Virus record (IMG/VR): IMGVR_UViG_2734482536_000008
Source: a virus
Taxonomy: Duplodnaviria; Heunggongvirae; Uroviricota; Caudoviricetes
Strand: one strand, 5' to 3'
Length of the DNA: 4,472 nucleotides
Position 1 is the first letter of the stretch. Each line of letters starts with the position of its first letter. Below are positions 1 to 4,472 of this stretch, one piece after another. Under the pieces are notes generated by a model, which ran no database searches, was not told the origin of the DNA, and was given only the letters and a program-made list of their open reading frames with translations. The position numbers and the translations under genes are program-made.

Positions 1-25
1 GGGAAAAATATCATCAGATGGCTGC

Positions 26-378
26 TTAAAAAAAGAACAAATGGTAGTGTCCGCTATTGCCAGTACACCTCAATTGCTCTGCGGCTTCGCTCAGAGCTGG
101 CGTATGTTCCCGGCCTACTGATTCACACAGGTAATCAACGAAACCGGACACCAGTTTTCGTTCGCGAGGCGTGATCGCCCCACCGACCGGAGTCCAGTAA
201 TCGAAACCCAGTTGCAGGAGTTTGAAAAAACGCTTGTGGAATGCGTAGTTACACACACGCTTAAAGTCTGCGTGTATCCACTCACCTATTTTGATTTGAT
301 GCAGAAAATCGCAACTCTCCGGCGTCGCCGGGAGAAGTAATCCGGAAGAGGTTTGTTTGACCAGTTGTATATGTGCCA
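26..378 (-). CDS. Hypothetical prophage protein, 117 aa from the ATG at 376-378 (ORF track extends it to a TTG at 419-421)
   Basis: Open frame with no stops. The ATG at 376-378 is preceded by GGAGAAAG about 7 nt upstream on the minus strand. Reads protein-like (MAHIQLVKQTSSG...), but I recognise no family with confidence. The stop lies 25 nt from the window edge. Confidence 0.45.
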
Positions 379-417
379 TCGGCTTTCTCCGGTGGCACGG
401 TGTTACACAGCAGGAGT

Positions 418-705
418 TCAATCCTGCTCAAGATTGTAGATGAGTTTATTCTTCAGCAAAAGCAGAAAACCAGCCTTAAAACCAATCTCTTTCAAAACCC
501 GTAATGATGTGACAAATTCGTCCTCACGCAAAATAAAACCGTCCGTCAGAAGTCCATTACAAAAATAAAATAACACAGCACCGCTCTTCCTTTGTTGAGA
601 TTGCAAACATCTAATGCGGCAATGGCTGACAATCGCTCCATTCTCAACGCGCACAGCATAGAGGCCATTTTCACTAAAAATTTCACGCAATTCTTCGATT
701 TTCAT
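418..705 (-). CDS. Hypothetical small protein, 95 aa
   Basis: ATG at 703-705 preceded by GGAAGGA (SD-like) on the minus strand; stop at 418-420. No recognisable motif. Confidence 0.45.
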   Translation of the reverse strand: MKIEELREIFSENGLYAVRVENGAIVSHCRIRCLQSQQRKSGAVLFYFCNGLLTDGFILREDEFVTSLRVLKEIGFKAGFLLLLKNKLIYNLEQD

Positions 706-786
706 CTTCAGAATCCTTCCAGATAAATAGCTCTCCCCTGTTCGGGGTCCATCCCTCTTCTCCCTGCGCGCTACTTAAGTGAGTCG

Positions 787-814
787 ATTCTATCTGCGAA
801 GGTGCGCGAATCAA
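787..814 (-). promoter_or_regulatory. Candidate sigma70 promoter for the 95-aa gene (TTGATT, 16-nt spacer, TAGAAT on the minus strand)
   Basis: Minus-strand -35 TTGATT (plus 809-814 aatcaa) and -10 TAGAAT (plus 787-792 attcta); predicted start near 780, giving a roughly 75-nt leader. Sequence match only. Confidence 0.3.
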
Positions 815-830
815 ATTCACCGGAAATAAA

Positions 831-877
831 CAACAAAAAACCCGCCGAAACGCTGAGAGATCACAGCGATGGGCGGG
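831..877 (-). terminator. Rho-independent terminator at the end of the hok transcript
   Basis: Minus-strand RNA CCCGCC-CAU-CGCUG-UGAUCUCU-CAGCG-UUU-CGGCGGG (two-tier GC-rich hairpin, plus 841-877) followed directly by UUUUUUGUUGUUUAUUU (plus 831-840 A-run). Confidence 0.6.
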
Positions 878-883
878 TTAAGT

Positions 884-896
884 GCGGGTGCGTTGA
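884..896 (-). promoter_or_regulatory. 3' fold-back (fbi-like) element of hok mRNA, complementary to the predicted mRNA 5' end
   Basis: Plus 884-896 gggtgcgttgagg is the near-perfect reverse complement of plus 1269-1280 cctcaagcaccc (one extra base). In the minus-strand transcript the 5' end GGGUGCUUGAGG can pair with 3' CCUCAACGCACCC, as described for hok-family mRNAs. Confidence 0.45.
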
Positions 897-918
897 GGAT
901 GCCTGACACATCAGAGGT

Positions 919-946
919 GGGCGGGGATGGGATCAGCTCCCCGCCC
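919..946 (-). promoter_or_regulatory. Perfect 9-bp GC-rich stem-loop immediately 3' of the hok stop codon
   Basis: gggcgggga (919-927), 10-nt loop, tccccgccc (938-946). No U-tract follows on either strand, so it is not a terminator; likely a structural element of the hok 3' UTR. Confidence 0.4.
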
Positions 947-954
947 GGTCACTC

Positions 955-1110
955 TTACTTCCTGGATTCGTAGTCTACGAAGACAGCGACCTCCGTCTGG
1001 CCGGTTCGGATTCGTACCTCACAGAGGTCTTTCCTCGTTACCAGTGCCGTCACTATGACGGTTAAACAGATGACGATCAGGGCGATTAACATCGCCTTTT
1101 GCTGCTTCAT
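955..1110 (-). CDS. hok: Hok/Gef family type I toxin, 51 aa
   Basis: Translation MKQQKAMLIALIVICLTVIVTALVTRKDLCEVRIRTGQTEVAVFVDYESRK is near-identical over most of its length to HokD/RelF and Gef/HokC as I recall them (single transmembrane helix, conserved TRK-LCE-R-G-EVA core). ATG at 1108-1110 with AAGGAG 9 nt upstream. The specific paralog is not resolved. Confidence 0.85.
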   Translation of the reverse strand: MKQQKAMLIALIVICLTVIVTALVTRKDLCEVRIRTGQTEVAVFVDYESRK

Positions 1111-1167
1111 AGCCTGCTTCTCCTTGCCTTTCGGCATGTAAGAGGCTAACCTACATGTGCAAAGCAT
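955..1167 (-). CDS. mok: mok-like in-frame upstream reading frame, 70 codons, sharing the hok stop
   Basis: ATG at 1165-1167 opens a frame that runs into hok in the same frame, 19 codons longer. This matches the mok/hok arrangement in which mok is a 5'-extended frame ending at the hok stop, as I recall for mokC/hokC. Confidence 0.45.
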   Translation of the reverse strand: MLCTCRLASYMPKGKEKQAMKQQKAMLIALIVICLTVIVTALVTRKDLCEVRIRTGQTEVAVFVDYESRK

Positions 1168-1225
1168 GAAATTGGCCTCAGATTAATGTTAAGCGTCTTG
1201 CCGGACGCGTAATGTTAACTGGGGC
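1150..1225 (+). ncRNA. sok: Predicted Sok-like antisense RNA (position approximate)
   Basis: By analogy with hok/sok, the antisense RNA is transcribed opposite the hok leader across the mok initiation region. A weak plus-strand promoter candidate exists (TTGCCT 1124-1129, 17-nt spacer, TAACCT 1147-1152). Ends are not defined and no clean terminator was found. Confidence 0.25.
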
Positions 1226-1268
1226 TTTTCTCTATCTGCCTTTTGGTGTTCATGCCTGAAGCAGATAG

Positions 1269-1280
1269 CCTCAAGCACCC
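1269..1280 (-). promoter_or_regulatory. Predicted 5' end of hok mRNA (5' partner of the fbi pairing)
   Basis: Lies immediately downstream of the predicted -10 on the minus strand and is complementary to 884-896 (see that feature). Confidence 0.45.
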
Positions 1281-1286
1281 GCAGTC

Positions 1287-1316
1287 ATTCTACTTACCTC
1301 GCCAATATGAAATCAA
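1287..1316 (-). promoter_or_regulatory. Candidate sigma70 promoter of hok/mok mRNA (TTGATT, 18-nt spacer, TAGAAT)
   Basis: Minus-strand -35 TTGATT (plus 1311-1316) and -10 TAGAAT (plus 1287-1292); predicted start near 1280. This gives a leader of about 113 nt to mok and 170 nt to hok, consistent with hok-family mRNA architecture. Confidence 0.5.
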
Positions 1317-1337
1317 TCAGAAAGGTGCCCCATAAAA

Positions 1338-2024
1338 TCACTCCTTCTCTTCTTTACCGTAGTGGAGTTGACCAATTTTGATAAGAGGGCGTCCCTGAGA
1401 TTTGCGGTGTAGATTGGTATCGCGCAGAGAATACACACAGCCACAATATTCCTGCTGATAGAATTTTTCGCGCTTGCTGATTTCAATCATACGGGACGAG
1501 CCGCCCTGCTTGCGCCAGTTATAATCCCAGTACACCATGCCCGGATAATGCGCGACGGCTCGCCGCCCACAGTCGTTAACCTGCTGCATATTTTTCCAGC
1601 GTGAAATGCCCAGTGAACTGCTGATCACACTGAAACCATTTTCAGCGGCGTACAGCGCTGTCCGCTCAAAACGCATGTCAAAACACATGGTGCAACGGAT
1701 CCCTCGTTCGGGCTCCCATTCCATTCCTTTGGCTCGTTCAAACCAGTTGTCTGTGTCGTAATCAGCATCAATAAACGGCACGCCGTGTTGTTCAGCAAAG
1801 CGAATATTCTCATCCTTACGAATTAAATACTCTTTCTGAGGATGAATGTTCGGGTTGTAGAAAAAGATGGTGTAGTCGATTCCCGAGGCCTGAAGCGCCT
1901 CCATCACCTCACCGGAACATGGAGCACAGCAAGAGTGCAGTAGTAGTTTGTTTGCCCCGTTTGGGAGCTCCAATTTGGGCCGTTTGAAATCAGCAACTGT
2001 CATAAATATGTTTATTGGGGTCAT
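1338..2024 (-). CDS. queH: QueH-like (DUF208) putative epoxyqueuosine reductase, Fe-S enzyme, 228 aa
   Basis: Contains [11 protein letters not shown] near the N-terminus plus downstream CTMCF and [11 protein letters not shown] cysteine motifs, which I recognise as the DUF208/QueH signature. No obvious Shine-Dalgarno before the ATG at 2022-2024 or the in-frame ATG at 2001-2003, so the start is uncertain. Family assignment is from memory of motifs. Confidence 0.7.
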
Positions 2025-2171
2025 AAAAATATCAAAGAGTGTAGCATTAGAACGGGGCTATCGGAAACAGATGTGTGACTGCTCCCCGCCCTTTCGGGTG
2101 GTCTCCTGATGATTTGAGGGTGCAGAAATCCCTCCGGTTAAGGATTAAATTTTTAACAGTGCTAAATTTAA

Positions 2172-2528
2172 TTATTCAGTTCTGGATTTTGTCGCCCTGC
2201 GTATCCGCGCTTTCGCGTTACGCTCAATCTGTATCAGCTTTTCTATATTTCTCCGCCTTTCCTGTTCCTCCTGGCGCAATAGCCTTACATCATCTGCCAG
2301 TCTGGTTTCTCTTTTTGCCACAGAGAGCATCCAGTCAAACGGCTCCACAACCGCACCGCAGATTTTACAGCGGACCTGACGCTCTTTTTCGTCAACCCGT
2401 ACAGAGGCGTGATGGCAATATGGTCTTTCCGATGGCTCATAAAGAAAATTAACCTGATTACGAGGGTCATCCTCTTTTACCGGAAATAAAACGATATTGC
2501 TTAACTCATCTTCTGGTTTTATTTCCAT
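2172..2528 (-). CDS. Uncharacterised protein, 119 aa: putative zinc-ribbon (C-H-H ... CxxC) followed by a charged, probably coiled-coil, C-terminal half
   Basis: ATG at 2526-2528 preceded by a strong SD AAGGAGAGGAG; the ORF track's longer version starts at 2585 and abuts the upstream stop. Motif YCHHASVRVDEKERQVRCKICG, then RETRLADDVRLLRQEEQERRRNIEKLIQIERNAKARIRR. No family recognised. Confidence 0.6.
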   Translation of the reverse strand: MEIKPEDELSNIVLFPVKEDDPRNQVNFLYEPSERPYCHHASVRVDEKERQVRCKICGAVVEPFDWMLSVAKRETRLADDVRLLRQEEQERRRNIEKLIQIERNAKARIRRATKSRTE

Positions 2529-2585
2529 GCTCCTCTCCTTTGATGCGAATGCCAGCGGTAATTGAAGCCTGATAGCTAATTTCAT

Positions 2586-3008
2586 TCACAGTATCGCCTC
2601 CTGAAAATTACCCTGATAGAAAGCCAGTACACGCTGCATAGCTTCGCTCTTCCGGCACTCGCGACAGATTATATTCAGGCGCCTGTCGTAGCGGCGTATT
2701 TCTCCGTCAGGTAATGACCAGATAAGGTCCGGATCAACAACAACCGGTTTCCTCACCTTTACTCTCGAGAGTTTTTTGCGGGCGCTTTGCCAGTCCTTGC
2801 GAGCCTGTTCAGACGGGAATAAGCCGTAGCCAGAATTATATACATCACCACTTGCGACCAGTTCTATGCATAAGCGACCGACAGACGCACGACTGATACC
2901 TGTTTCATCTGACAACTGCCGAATCGTGACCCGACCGTCCTGATGCACGAGTTCCACAATTCGCGTCTTCAGTTCTTCCCGCTGTTCGGGAGTAAAAGGT
3001 TTCGCCAT
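2586..3008 (-). CDS. ren: Ren-like protein with N-terminal helix-turn-helix, 140 aa
   Basis: ATG at 3006-3008 with AGGAGG 5 nt upstream, 14 nt after the DnaC-like stop. C-terminal ICRECRKSEAMQRVLAFYQG resembles the phage lambda Ren C-terminus (FKECRQSAAMKRVLAVYG, as I recall it). N-terminal TIRQLSDETGISRASVGRL is HTH-like. The position right after the P-like gene matches lambda O-P-ren order. Confidence 0.55.
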   Translation of the reverse strand: MAKPFTPEQREELKTRIVELVHQDGRVTIRQLSDETGISRASVGRLCIELVASGDVYNSGYGLFPSEQARKDWQSARKKLSRVKVRKPVVVDPDLIWSLPDGEIRRYDRRLNIICRECRKSEAMQRVLAFYQGNFQEAIL

Positions 3009-3022
3009 AAATCCTCCTGAAA

Positions 3023-3684
3023 CTACTTAACAACCCTCGAATGGCTAACATTCGGACGCCAGCTCTCCCAGTTAAAATTCACCCAGCGCCCGNNNNNNNN
3101 NNNNNNNNNNNNNNNNNNNNNNNNNNNNNNNNNNNNNNNNNNNNNNNNNNNNNNNNNNNNNNNNNNNNNNNNNNNNNNNNNNNNNNNNNNNNNNNNNNNN
3201 NNNNNNNNNNNNNNNNNNNNNNNNNNNNNNNNNNNNNNNNNNNNNNNNNNNNNNNNNNNNNNNNNNNNNNNNNNNNNNNNNNNNNNNNNNNNNNNNNNNN
3301 NNNNNNNNNNNNNNNNNNNNNGATAGCTGCCGCTAAGTGATTCTTCCCGGTACCAGGTTTTCCGCTGAACGCAAAATTTGTACACCCGGTCATCAGTTCA
3401 TCGGCGATGGATTTCGCCTGGCTTAACGCGTATCGCTGGCCGTCGTTCTGCACCTGGTAATTCGCAAACGAGCATTTACGGTGCAACGGCTGGATGCCTG
3501 AGCGATTCAGAATTTTTTCCACCCGCAACTGGCGATTCAGGCGGTTGATCTCCTCGCTACGTTTCTGGCCTTCAGCAAGTTGCCACTCGCGCCACTCCGC
3601 TACCGTTCTGAATGGGGCGGTTACATGTGGCGGGGTCAGTCGGCGGATGCGTTCCAGAACGCCGCCTGTCGCAATATTTTTCAT
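3023..3684 (-). CDS. dnaC: DnaC-like replicative helicase loader (phage P-function analogue, AAA+ ATPase), interrupted by the N run
   Basis: N-terminal 120 aa align closely to E. coli DnaC, including NRSGIQPLH, CSF-NYQV and the Walker A motif FSGKPGTGKNHLAAAI. The C-terminal tail after the gap (GRWVNFNWESWRPNVSHSRVVK) matches the DnaC C-terminus (LWVIFNWDSYRSRVTGKEY). ATG at 3682-3684, stop TAG at 3023-3025. The two halves are in different frames across a 229-nt N run, so the true length is unknown. Confidence 0.85.
3093..3321. other. Run of 229 N (assembly gap or masked sequence) inside the DnaC-like gene
   Basis: Directly visible. Its length is not a multiple of 3, which explains the frame change between the two gene halves. 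Confidence 0.95.
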
Positions 3685-3690
3685 GGTCCG

Positions 3691-4367
3691 TTACCCCCTG
3701 AAGCCTGGCGGGATCGCACTGTCCGGCAACGAGACGGTGTTAACCTGTCGGAGCAACGTCTCAGGCCGAACACCTTTCGGCGCGAACAGGCCCTGGTATT
3801 CATTGGCGATGCTGTGTCGAATCACCTGCTCAGGTGTAAAACCCTGCTGACGGAATTTTTCCAGTTCCCGTATCGCCCCGTTAGCGCCCTGCTCCGTTCG
3901 AATCGGTTTTCGCAATGCCTGTCTGAACCGGACCCACTCATGCCAGAGTGTTTCCGGCAACCAATCGGGCAGCTCAATAGCCTCCGGCTCGAATTTTTTA
4001 GACGCTCGTTTTTGGCGAGGGGGAGATCAGTATTTAGATCTTCCTCTTCCTCTTCCTCTGGTAACGCTTTTTGATCCGTTTGTGTAACGCTGGCAGCGTT
4101 ACCTTTTCGTTTCAGTTCGCGTATTTTTGTTACTCGCTCGTTTGTAACCGCCCGTTTTTTTTAGAGCTTTTTCCGTTATGACGTTCAAAGTTAGGTAGAG
4201 AAAGCCCTCCGTCATTTTCGACCAGCCATCCAACCTGAATTAACGCATCAGCAAAACCAGACATAAAAGTGATGCGATCTATTGCACTTTTTGTAACGCC
4301 GCGAGCGTTACAATCTGCATTACCGTCTATCATTTGTTGATCCGCCCATGCCCAGAAGCGAATAACC
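3691..4367 (-). pseudogene. Phage replication-initiator/primosomal gene with DnaT-like C-terminal domain, split across three frames
   Basis: The C-terminal segment (3691..about 4026) ends NTVSLPDSAIPPGFRG and contains KFEPEAIELPDWLPE, matching the E. coli DnaT C-terminal domain (NTVSEPDSQIPPGFRG; PDWQPD). Its stop is 6 nt before the DnaC-like start, like chromosomal dnaT-dnaC. Upstream, coding continues without stops in a second frame (about 4160..3996, KKRAVTNERVTKIRELKRKGNAASVTQTDQKALPEEEEEEDLNTDLPLAKNERLK) and a third (4367..4130, ending HNGKSSKKNGRLQTSE stop). The frames change at an A8 tract (plus T8, 4155-4162) and near an A6 tract (plus 3994-3999). The 5' end is either the ATG at 4331-4333 or lies beyond the IS at 4368. 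Confidence 0.55.
4039..4059. repeat. Hexanucleotide tandem repeat (TCTTCC/GAGGAA, about 3.5 units) encoding a Glu6 linker on the minus strand
   Basis: Plus tcttcctcttcctcttcctct; on the minus strand GAG GAA GAG GAA GAG GAA in the middle frame of the replication gene. Confidence 0.5.
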
Positions 4368-4472
4368 TGAGGTAGCCTGAGTTTAACGGACACTCCTTCC
4401 TGAAATAGAATGGCATCAGAAGGAGCTAATAATGAGCAGAAAAACCCAACGTTACTCTAAAGAGTTCAAAGC
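4368..4472 (+). mobile_element. IS3-family insertion sequence, left end (IS600-like), continuing past the window edge
   Basis: A terminal TGAGGTAGCC... at 4368 with GGACAC at IR positions 21-26, the same position as in the IS3 left inverted repeat as I recall it. The orfA ATG follows 64 bp after the IR start with AGGAG 8 nt upstream, a typical IS3-family layout. Only one end is in the window, so the boundary is inferred. Confidence 0.7.
4432..4472 (+). CDS. IS3-family transposase OrfA, N-terminal 13 codons (partial, runs off the window)
   Basis: ATGAGCAGAAAAACCCAACGTTACTCTAAAGAGTTCAAAGC translates MSRKTQRYSKEFK, which I recognise as the start of IS600/IS3-family OrfA (HTH protein). Confidence 0.75.
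   Translation, partial: MSRKTQRYSKEFK

Follow-up and report, generated by a model that had tools for sequence, protein, structure and literature searches.

We analysed a stretch of 4,472 nucleotides (nt) of viral DNA (IMG/VR record IMGVR_UViG_2734482536_000008), called the window below, and found that an open reading frame (ORF) on its minus strand, at 1338..2024, encodes an intact, full-length QueH. The gene lies in a short cassette that prophages and plasmids share, and we consider it likely that it provides the lysogen with a functional, self-expressed and B12-independent back-up for the enzyme QueG.

Both enzymes act late in the formation of queuosine (Q) in tRNA. Once Tgt has inserted preQ1 and QueA has converted it to epoxyqueuosine (oQ), oQ is reduced to Q by QueG or by QueH, which is able to replace QueG (PMC5372724). 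QueG requires cobalamin (PMC4646009, PMC5175355), and E. coli and Salmonella need cobamides to reduce oQ (Frey et al. 1988, quoted in a citing paper), while QueH has been described as the cobamide-independent alternative (PMC6461909).

An intact QueH of conserved sequence and predicted fold

The ORF can be divided into two parts according to the comparison of start codons described below.

1338..2003, minus strand: queH coding sequence (CDS) from the conserved start (Met8), 221 amino acids (aa); evidence from Pfam, the Prokaryotic Genome Annotation Pipeline (PGAP), start-codon comparison, substitution rates and fold match to 7LC5.
2004..2024, minus strand: the seven codons added when the non-conserved upstream ATG is taken as the start, probably 5' untranslated region; evidence from the comparison of alleles and homologues.

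Counted from its first ATG, which sets the residue numbering used here, the ORF encodes 228 aa with the Cys motifs HSCCAPCS at residues 30-37, CTMC at 111-114 and CGC at 194-196. From these three motifs an earlier note, made from the sequence alone, had proposed a QueH-like (DUF208) Fe-S enzyme, a proposal borne out by profile, residue and fold comparisons. The profile PF02677 (QueH, formerly DUF208) matched the protein with an E value of 1.9e-65 and 220.6 bits over positions 1-174 of 175, well past its gathering score of 23.5 bits, so that the QueH-like character lies far beyond chance. The same protein carries the RefSeq/PGAP product name epoxyqueuosine reductase QueH (WP_012421537.1).

For the residue comparison, the query was aligned with 61 diverse full-length representatives, drawn from the 4,755 hits (E <= 0.001) that a search of sequences clustered at 50% identity had given. 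The query has the majority residue in every column conserved at 85% or more, that is, H30, C32, C33, A34, P35, C36, N57, N59, I60, P62, E65, Y66, R69, W94, E106, R110, C111, C114, R118, K144, Q191, C194, G195 and C196. We also examined the ligand pattern of the family, an N-terminal CCxP(C/D), a central CxxC and a C-terminal CxC. The seven candidate metal ligands (C32, C33, C36, C111, C114, C194 and C196) are all kept, in columns that are 89-100% Cys. The earlier note had spoken of Cys/Asp ligands; the position of Asp13 in the Thermotoga maritima enzyme (TmQueH) is here occupied by Cys36, and Cys is found there in 57 of the 61 representatives. We considered this exchange as a possible sign of a divergent enzyme and rejected the idea, since Cys is the family norm and Thermotoga the outlier. 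The point mutants C9S and D13N of TmQueH in the PDB correspond to query residues C32 and C36 and appear to mark positions that crystallographers considered catalytic; our assignment of the metal ligands is based on family conservation together with the identity of these mutants.

TmQueH (7LC5) and its variants are the sole solved relatives, aligned to residues 27-203 with an E value of 5e-22. An AlphaFold2 model built from 49 sequences reached a predicted local distance difference test score (pLDDT) of 81.9 and a predicted template modelling (TM) score of 0.83. When it was compared with the PDB by Foldseek, the top five matches were all TmQueH entries (TM score on the target 0.79-0.81, E values 1e-10 to 8e-9), 7LC5 being the best at 0.81; the earlier note had suggested this comparison with the Thermotoga structure. 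Below them came TtuA, LarE and further proteins resembling adenine-nucleotide alpha-hydrolases, with E values of 4e-5 or weaker and a much higher root-mean-square deviation. By family membership, conserved residues and predicted fold, the gene is an intact, full-length QueH. These features suggest that the prophage protein binds metal and reduces oQ, and we hold it to be very probable that the enzyme is active.

The earlier note had also considered that the DUF208 enzyme might have diverged to a different substrate. A small molecule would be one candidate and a 7-deazaguanine derivative in DNA another; 7-deazaguanine chemistry on DNA is known from phages (PMC6884629), and few QueH members have been characterised enzymologically. 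Against this stand the retention of every family-conserved residue, which disfavours a diverged substrate on sequence grounds, the 79-92% identity to stand-alone chromosomal QueH of related genera, the absence of DpdA, QueC, QueD and QueE genes from the prophage, and the absence of QueH from a 2019 survey of 7-deazaguanine phages (PMC6884629). We regard a different substrate as highly improbable.

The earlier note had started the protein at the first ATG and seen an oddity in the 26 residues ahead of the Cys motif, and on both points the comparisons lead elsewhere. In E. coli FDAARGOS_944, whose gene is identical, the 221-aa PGAP CDS WP_012421537.1 begins at the second ATG (window position 2003). 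Allele L004, from a Rac-type prophage, has ATT in place of the first ATG, followed by an in-frame TAA, and in one IMG/VR allele a 1-bp insertion separates the two ATGs and puts the upstream one out of frame. The 120 closest homologues, chromosomal ones included, mostly have 21-23 residues ahead of CCAPC, a length that fits Met8. Judged by these comparisons, the true start of queH is the second ATG, and only the first seven codons appear to be spurious. The remaining segment of about 20 residues is conserved in the same 120 homologues and confidently modelled (pLDDT of about 92 at residues 11-20), and it is best described, from this alignment, as a clade-typical part of proteobacterial QueH.

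PHROGs places the protein in family 3217, of "unknown function", with a profile that begins at residue 41, an internal Met (window 1338-1904). Many phage annotations thus appear to start internally and to cut off the CCAPC motif, which may be the cause of the family being unnamed in phage databases.

Selection, distribution and origin

Our prophage set consists of 80 IMG/VR contigs with 99-100% protein identity. All 80 copies are intact 221-aa ORFs that keep every Cys, and their 18 nucleotide alleles encode 5 protein variants. The ratio of nonsynonymous to synonymous substitution rates (dN/dS), estimated pairwise by the Nei-Gojobori method for five alleles, is about 0.03 (0.027-0.037) at dS values of up to 0.45, which indicates strong purifying selection on the protein during its residence in prophages and would exclude decaying cargo. 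The gene was found in 995 of the 5,426 complete E. coli genomes, nearly always as a single copy and with 90-100% nucleotide identity, and 985 of the 995 matches span at least 80% of it. QueH is its RefSeq name in all of them. In the same collection queG (E. coli b4166) is present in 5,426 of 5,426 genomes; every carrier of queH therefore also has the B12-dependent enzyme, and queH is redundant by gene content.

This redundancy is one argument for seeing in queH a neutral hitch-hiker or a decaying pseudogene of no current function, as are the lack of a Shine-Dalgarno (SD) sequence and the degraded state of the prophage in this window. The dN/dS values, the full length of all 80 copies with their cysteines and the high coverage of the genomic matches largely refute this explanation, to which we give very little weight.

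Wherever queH of Escherichia was examined in its context (about 85 of the 995 genomic matches), it was found in a prophage or, rarely, on a plasmid. The gene is also carried by the isolated Escherichia phage HannyBb, with 95.6% identity and the label "hypothetical". Other "phage" matches obtained by tblastn were unannotated short metagenomic contigs or oversized records with 32-78% identity, and we did not count them as carriage.

Outside Escherichia, the nearest proteins are those of Scandinavium (92% identity), Kluyvera (91%), Enterobacter (89-90%) and Symbiopectobacterium (87%); more distant QueH proteins come from many Enterobacterales and then from Pseudomonas, Stenotrophomonas and Sphingomonas, at 75-86%. 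Chromosomal QueH with 79-92% identity occurs in Erwinia, Pantoea, Photorhabdus, Providencia, Proteus, Serratia, Dickeya, Enterobacter and Kluyvera, which makes QueH native to many Enterobacterales. The premise of the earlier note that enterobacteria use QueG is right for E. coli, where queG is universal, but too broad for the order. When 80 species-representative loci were probed with the prophage neighbours of queH, only E. albertii shared the lambdoid genes, and ORF lists, made without family searches, show the genes of Scandinavium, Kluyvera and Enterobacter in ordinary surroundings that differ from one genus to the next. In this clade of QueH conservation is unusually high, at 75-92% identity across Enterobacterales, Pseudomonas, Stenotrophomonas, Sphingomonas, Rhizobium and Neisseriaceae. 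Implausible taxon labels on a few records (Bacillus subtilis and an Acidaminococcus-like metagenome-assembled genome) are probably a result of contamination.

A mobile cassette, its putative promoter and its prophage context

The extent of the unit that moves with queH was defined by plasmid matches and by the points at which BLASTN alignments to four other contexts, in prophages or phages, break off.

1332..2074, minus strand: mobile queH cassette, common to all contexts (BLASTN breakpoints, plasmid matches).
2038..2046, minus strand: putative extended -10-like element TGCTACACT, which precedes the Met8 ATG by about 35 nt (comparative alignment).
2061..2066, minus strand: weak -35-like hexamer TTCCGA, 17 nt upstream of the -10 element; a candidate read from the sequence.

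The edges of the cassette fall at window positions 1332-1334 or further downstream on one side and at 2051-2074 on the other, and the plasmid matches reach about 2064-2067. The cassette is thus about 740 bp long and consists of the CDS with about 50-70 bp upstream of it and almost nothing downstream. Its boundaries are sharp and the flanking genes differ among prophages, the presence/absence pattern of a moron. The cassette and its upstream stretch also occur on conjugative plasmids of the IncF group in Klebsiella (about 84% nucleotide identity, 16 records) and Salmonella (91%), and on an Enterobacter plasmid. In K. pneumoniae p90CM2-172k queH lies at 5988-6656 (locus L167) and in Salmonella pCFSAN024441_02 at 5992-6660 (L168), and its plasmid neighbours are fec iron-dicitrate transport genes, fragments of TonB-family genes and insertion sequence (IS) elements.

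To look upstream of the gene, we aligned prophage, plasmid and chromosomal copies, the latter from Scandinavium, Kluyvera and three Enterobacter. A core, GCTAC, is invariant and stands at a fixed distance from the ATG, while the flanks are otherwise unalignable among the three kinds of copies. The motif around it reads TGCTACA(C/A)T, a form of the extended -10 promoter TGnTAnnnT, and a stretch CCGATAG is conserved among the prophage and plasmid copies. Within 116 nt upstream of the start, TGnTAnnnT is present in 21 of 79 species-representative loci, nearly always at -37 to -60, compared with a background of 5% in random 116-nt windows; in 8 of the 9 closest species loci it stands at -39 to -44. 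A generic promoter scan called no site upstream of queH. The shared motif suggests that the gene carried a native promoter into the prophage, from which it could be expressed independently of phage repression.

The allele of this window is found, identical, in a complete lambdoid prophage of E. coli FDAARGOS_944 that adjoins ybhA/modC, the classical lambda attachment region. The gene order there is cro-like, ydaT, O-like, ydaV, DUF977 (ren-like), a small gene, queH, hokD, another small gene, DUF1367 (NinB), DUF1364, DUF1133, tRNAs and lysis genes. Other prophages preserve ydaV-(DUF1627)-DUF977-queH and differ in the downstream gene, which may be hokD (CE10), a restriction-modification (R-M) pair of NgoMIV type (an O157:H7 strain) or a DUF1971 gene (a Rac-type prophage). 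The slot downstream of queH is thus a hot spot for accessory cargo. Recurrence at one position in lambdoid prophages, a point raised by the earlier note, was seen in our set of 80 IMG/VR contigs, where DUF977 lies upstream of queH in about 75 and hok downstream in about 66.

The neighbours of queH within the window, with the two IS termini that bound it, are as follows.

1..72, plus strand: terminus of an IS600 element (IS3 family), which truncates the DUF1367/NinB gene (match to an annotated IS3-like element IS600; prophage homology begins at 73).
955..1280, minus strand: hok/sok type I toxin-antitoxin, with the hok CDS at 955..1110, the mok frame to 1167 and the leader/sok at 1105..1280 (Pfam, NCBIfam, Rfam, PGAP hokD).
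2172..2528, minus strand: small zinc-ribbon-like gene between the ren-like gene and queH, 118 aa (PGAP WP_001343130.1), its ORF reaching 2585 (PHROG 1621, 5e-56, function unknown).
2586..3008, minus strand: DUF977/Ren-like winged-helix protein (Pfam DUF977, 1.1e-33; PHROG 142 "Ren-like exclusion protein", 2.7e-44).
3023..3769, minus strand: ydaV/DnaC-like replication ATPase, its middle masked by Ns at 3093-3321 (located by transfer of the PGAP annotation from the matching genome).
4369..4472, plus strand: left terminus of a second IS600, with the orfA ATG at 4432, which truncates the O-like replication gene (prophage homology stops at 4368).

Homology to the intact prophage is limited to 73-3092 and 3322-4368, the gap being the N run. 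At the left end the Pfam match of DUF1367/NinB covers only positions 1-102 of a profile of 198, and at the right end 4369-4472 matches IS600 copies of 3,060 genomes with 99% identity. Both termini have the same orientation, so that the segment 73-4368 is bracketed like a composite transposon, and the window is a 4.3-kb prophage remnant between two IS600 copies. The left junction is absent from the complete E. coli genomes of our collection, and the remnant therefore probably comes from a Shigella or from a draft genome. The description of queH as prophage-borne is therefore right as to its being lambdoid prophage cargo, but what carries it here is this remnant only; similarly, the earlier note was correct in calling it non-core cargo flanked by the ren-like and hok genes, but the small gene at 2172..2528 intervenes. 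An intact queH in an IS600-bracketed remnant fits a function beneficial to the host, in this single case.

Some further observations concern the neighbours themselves. The toxin gene matches Pfam HOK_GEF (9.8e-23) and the Hok subfamily in NCBIfam, the sok RNA (RF01794, 1105..1280) scores 117 bits over the full Rfam model against a gathering score of 59, and the locus thus comprises a Hok/Gef ORF, an overlapping mok frame and the sok/leader RNA; a promoter-like site lies nearby at 1316->1287. The protein of the ORF at 2172..2585 contains a CxxC...CxxC segment with a weak, below-threshold match to a TFIIB Zn-ribbon, and the small gene is present in a minority of queH prophages. The 229-base N run at 3093-3321 yields artefactual ORFs containing X. 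In O157:H7 (Z1832, locus L002, 2806-4816), an NgoMIV-family restriction endonuclease and a DNA cytosine methyltransferase replace hok/sok downstream of queH. The intact prophage with identical queH carries four tRNA genes (L001, 17102-17412; Ile, Arg, Thr and Gly), none with a GUN anticodon, and there is thus no direct tie between the phage tRNAs and QueH.

This context bears on the phase of the phage life cycle in which queH acts. It is read in the same direction as the rest of the early-right operon (cro-like, ydaT, O-like, ydaV, ren-like, queH, hok, nin and the phage gene Q), no terminator is predicted on either side of it, and HannyBb, an isolated and presumably viable phage, carries it. 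Delayed-early read-through from pR could then complete queuosine on host tRNAs and tune the decoding of NAU/NAC codons in phage late genes, with any effect on the lysogen being incidental. Several facts speak against such a role. The promoter-like motif derives from chromosomal copies outside phages and accompanies the gene on plasmids, which argues for autonomous expression; queH is intact in an IS600-bracketed remnant stripped of phage functions; the cassette is kept on IncF plasmids, where a lytic cycle does not exist; and a short lytic cycle leaves little time for re-modification of the tRNA pool. We judge a primarily lytic function to be possible, at a low probability. It is compatible with a back-up role in the lysogen, and the two are not mutually exclusive.

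Proposed role in the lysogen and comparison with known systems

The role that we propose is that of a metabolic back-up to QueG acquired by lysogenic conversion, of the moron type and analogous to MetE/MetH. QueH would act as a cobalamin-independent Fe-S epoxyqueuosine reductase, expected from its family to bind a [4Fe-4S] cluster and an adjacent iron, and would turn the oQ34 of tRNA-Asp, -Asn, -His and -Tyr into Q. The cassette would have been captured from an Enterobacteriaceae chromosome into Rac/lambda-like prophages of Escherichia, at an accessory site between the replication genes (ydaV and the ren-like DUF977) and the nin region, and its own probable extended -10 promoter would allow expression in the lysogen regardless of phage repression. 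E. coli does not synthesise B12 de novo and QueG needs it, and the cassette would consequently let the lysogen complete its Q-tRNA under corrinoid scarcity. This corresponds to the first of the three options in the earlier note, B12-independent Q formation in the lysogen, which fits best. Promoter function, lysogen expression and a B12-sparing benefit are all predictions from the sequence; for expression in the lysogen as a B12-sparing back-up, taken by itself, the balance is only slightly favourable.

Several observations weigh against this reading. An NCBIfam scan gave zero models at E <= 0.01 for the QueH ORF, probably because the library copy lacks the family hidden Markov model, since PGAP nonetheless calls the protein QueH. 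As the earlier note had remarked, no SD sequence precedes queH, which is true for either ATG, and its translation may be weak for this reason; several chromosomal homologues are likewise devoid of an obvious SD. In allele L004 the -10-like hexamer is without its final T (TACACA). No intrinsic-terminator-like site was found on either strand at 700-2700, so that queH is not a textbook self-contained moron, and transcripts that start at the phage early-right promoter probably read through into it as well in lytic growth or on induction. The one RNA that Rfam detected at a permissive E value was sok; cobalamin and preQ1 riboswitches and other known regulatory RNAs were absent, and hence no known element couples queH expression to B12 or Q status. 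Finally, the gut is generally rich in corrinoids, and the size of a B12-sparing benefit is uncertain.

A role in conflicts between mobile elements was another of the earlier options. The oQ or Q state could alter the sensitivity of tRNAs with GUN anticodons to anticodon nucleases or colicins, or could exclude superinfecting phages. The gene adjoins one annotated as "Ren-like exclusion" and occupies a variable accessory slot together with hok/sok or, in O157:H7, the NgoMIV-type R-M pair, and a 2026 preprint reportedly ties Q to phage resistance in Shewanella. PADLOC, however, gave no match for QueH, which leaves counter-defence with no support there; among the neighbours the ren-like protein alone was hit, twice and below threshold (E 0.0017 and 0.0067). 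QueH shares 75-92% identity with its housekeeping chromosomal counterparts in Proteobacteria, with no sign of a new specificity; its plasmid copies stand beside iron-uptake and not defence genes, and we know of no nuclease that discriminates oQ from Q. A function in conflict seems very unlikely to us, and the metabolic back-up is the reading that we retain.

Compared with TmQueH (PDB 7LC5, 7LC7 and 9DEU), the query has the same full-length domain, three Cys motifs and other conserved residues, and its predicted fold is alike. It differs by the Cys at the position of Asp13, by the conserved N-terminal segment of about 20 residues and by a C-terminal tail of about 25 residues that are absent from the Thermotoga enzyme. 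Unlike chromosomal QueH, it is prophage-borne, holds no housekeeping position in the chromosome and coexists with QueG. QueH is predicted to catalyse the reaction of QueG, a cobalamin/[4Fe-4S] enzyme, and to share its tRNA substrates (PMC5372724), but the two proteins are unrelated in sequence and fold, and QueG is B12-dependent and core whereas queH is accessory. With the other morons of lambdoid phages, such as hok/sok and the R-M pairs of the same slot, queH shares the condition of variable, non-essential cargo between phage modules, with sharp edges and a probable promoter of its own; it differs from them in having no predicted terminator, in being a tRNA-modification gene and not a toxin, defence or virulence gene, and in the presence of its cassette on IncF plasmids. 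Cobamide-dependent and -independent enzymes in one genome recall MetH and MetE, as has been discussed for QueG and QueH (PMC6461909). Here, in contrast, the B12-independent partner comes from a mobile element, and a cobalamin riboswitch is absent.

The QueH family, its reaction and its structure are already known, and a RefSeq name exists for this protein. What is new is the mobile context, which is apparently undescribed in searchable papers: a 2019 survey of 7-deazaguanine genes in viral genomes had no homologues of QueA, QueG or QueH (PMC6884629), and our literature search found no paper on prophage-, phage- or plasmid-borne QueH, several seeming matches being author names or unrelated species. 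The advance lies in ecology and distribution and brings no new mechanism.

The last step of Q formation in E. coli has been thought to depend on vitamin B12 acquired from outside. If QueH is active and expressed, about one fifth of E. coli strains, O157:H7 and lineages of extraintestinal and avian pathogenic E. coli (ExPEC and APEC) included, would complete Q without B12, and the interpretation across strains of experiments on tRNA modification and on B12 limitation would be affected. A wider interpretation, unlikely in our estimation, is that mobile queH cassettes are a hitherto unrecognised kind of conversion by prophages or plasmids and rewire the epitranscriptome of the host, beyond a redundant back-up. 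In that event Q34 maturation would be uncoupled from corrinoids or active where QueG fails, and the decoding of NAU/NAC codons would change; shifts in stress, metal-homeostasis or virulence phenotypes could follow for about 18% of E. coli lineages, or GUN tRNAs could be protected from nucleases. An active and expressed QueH would by itself make this prophage gene a clear case of a temperate phage with a tRNA-maturation gene specific for queuosine.

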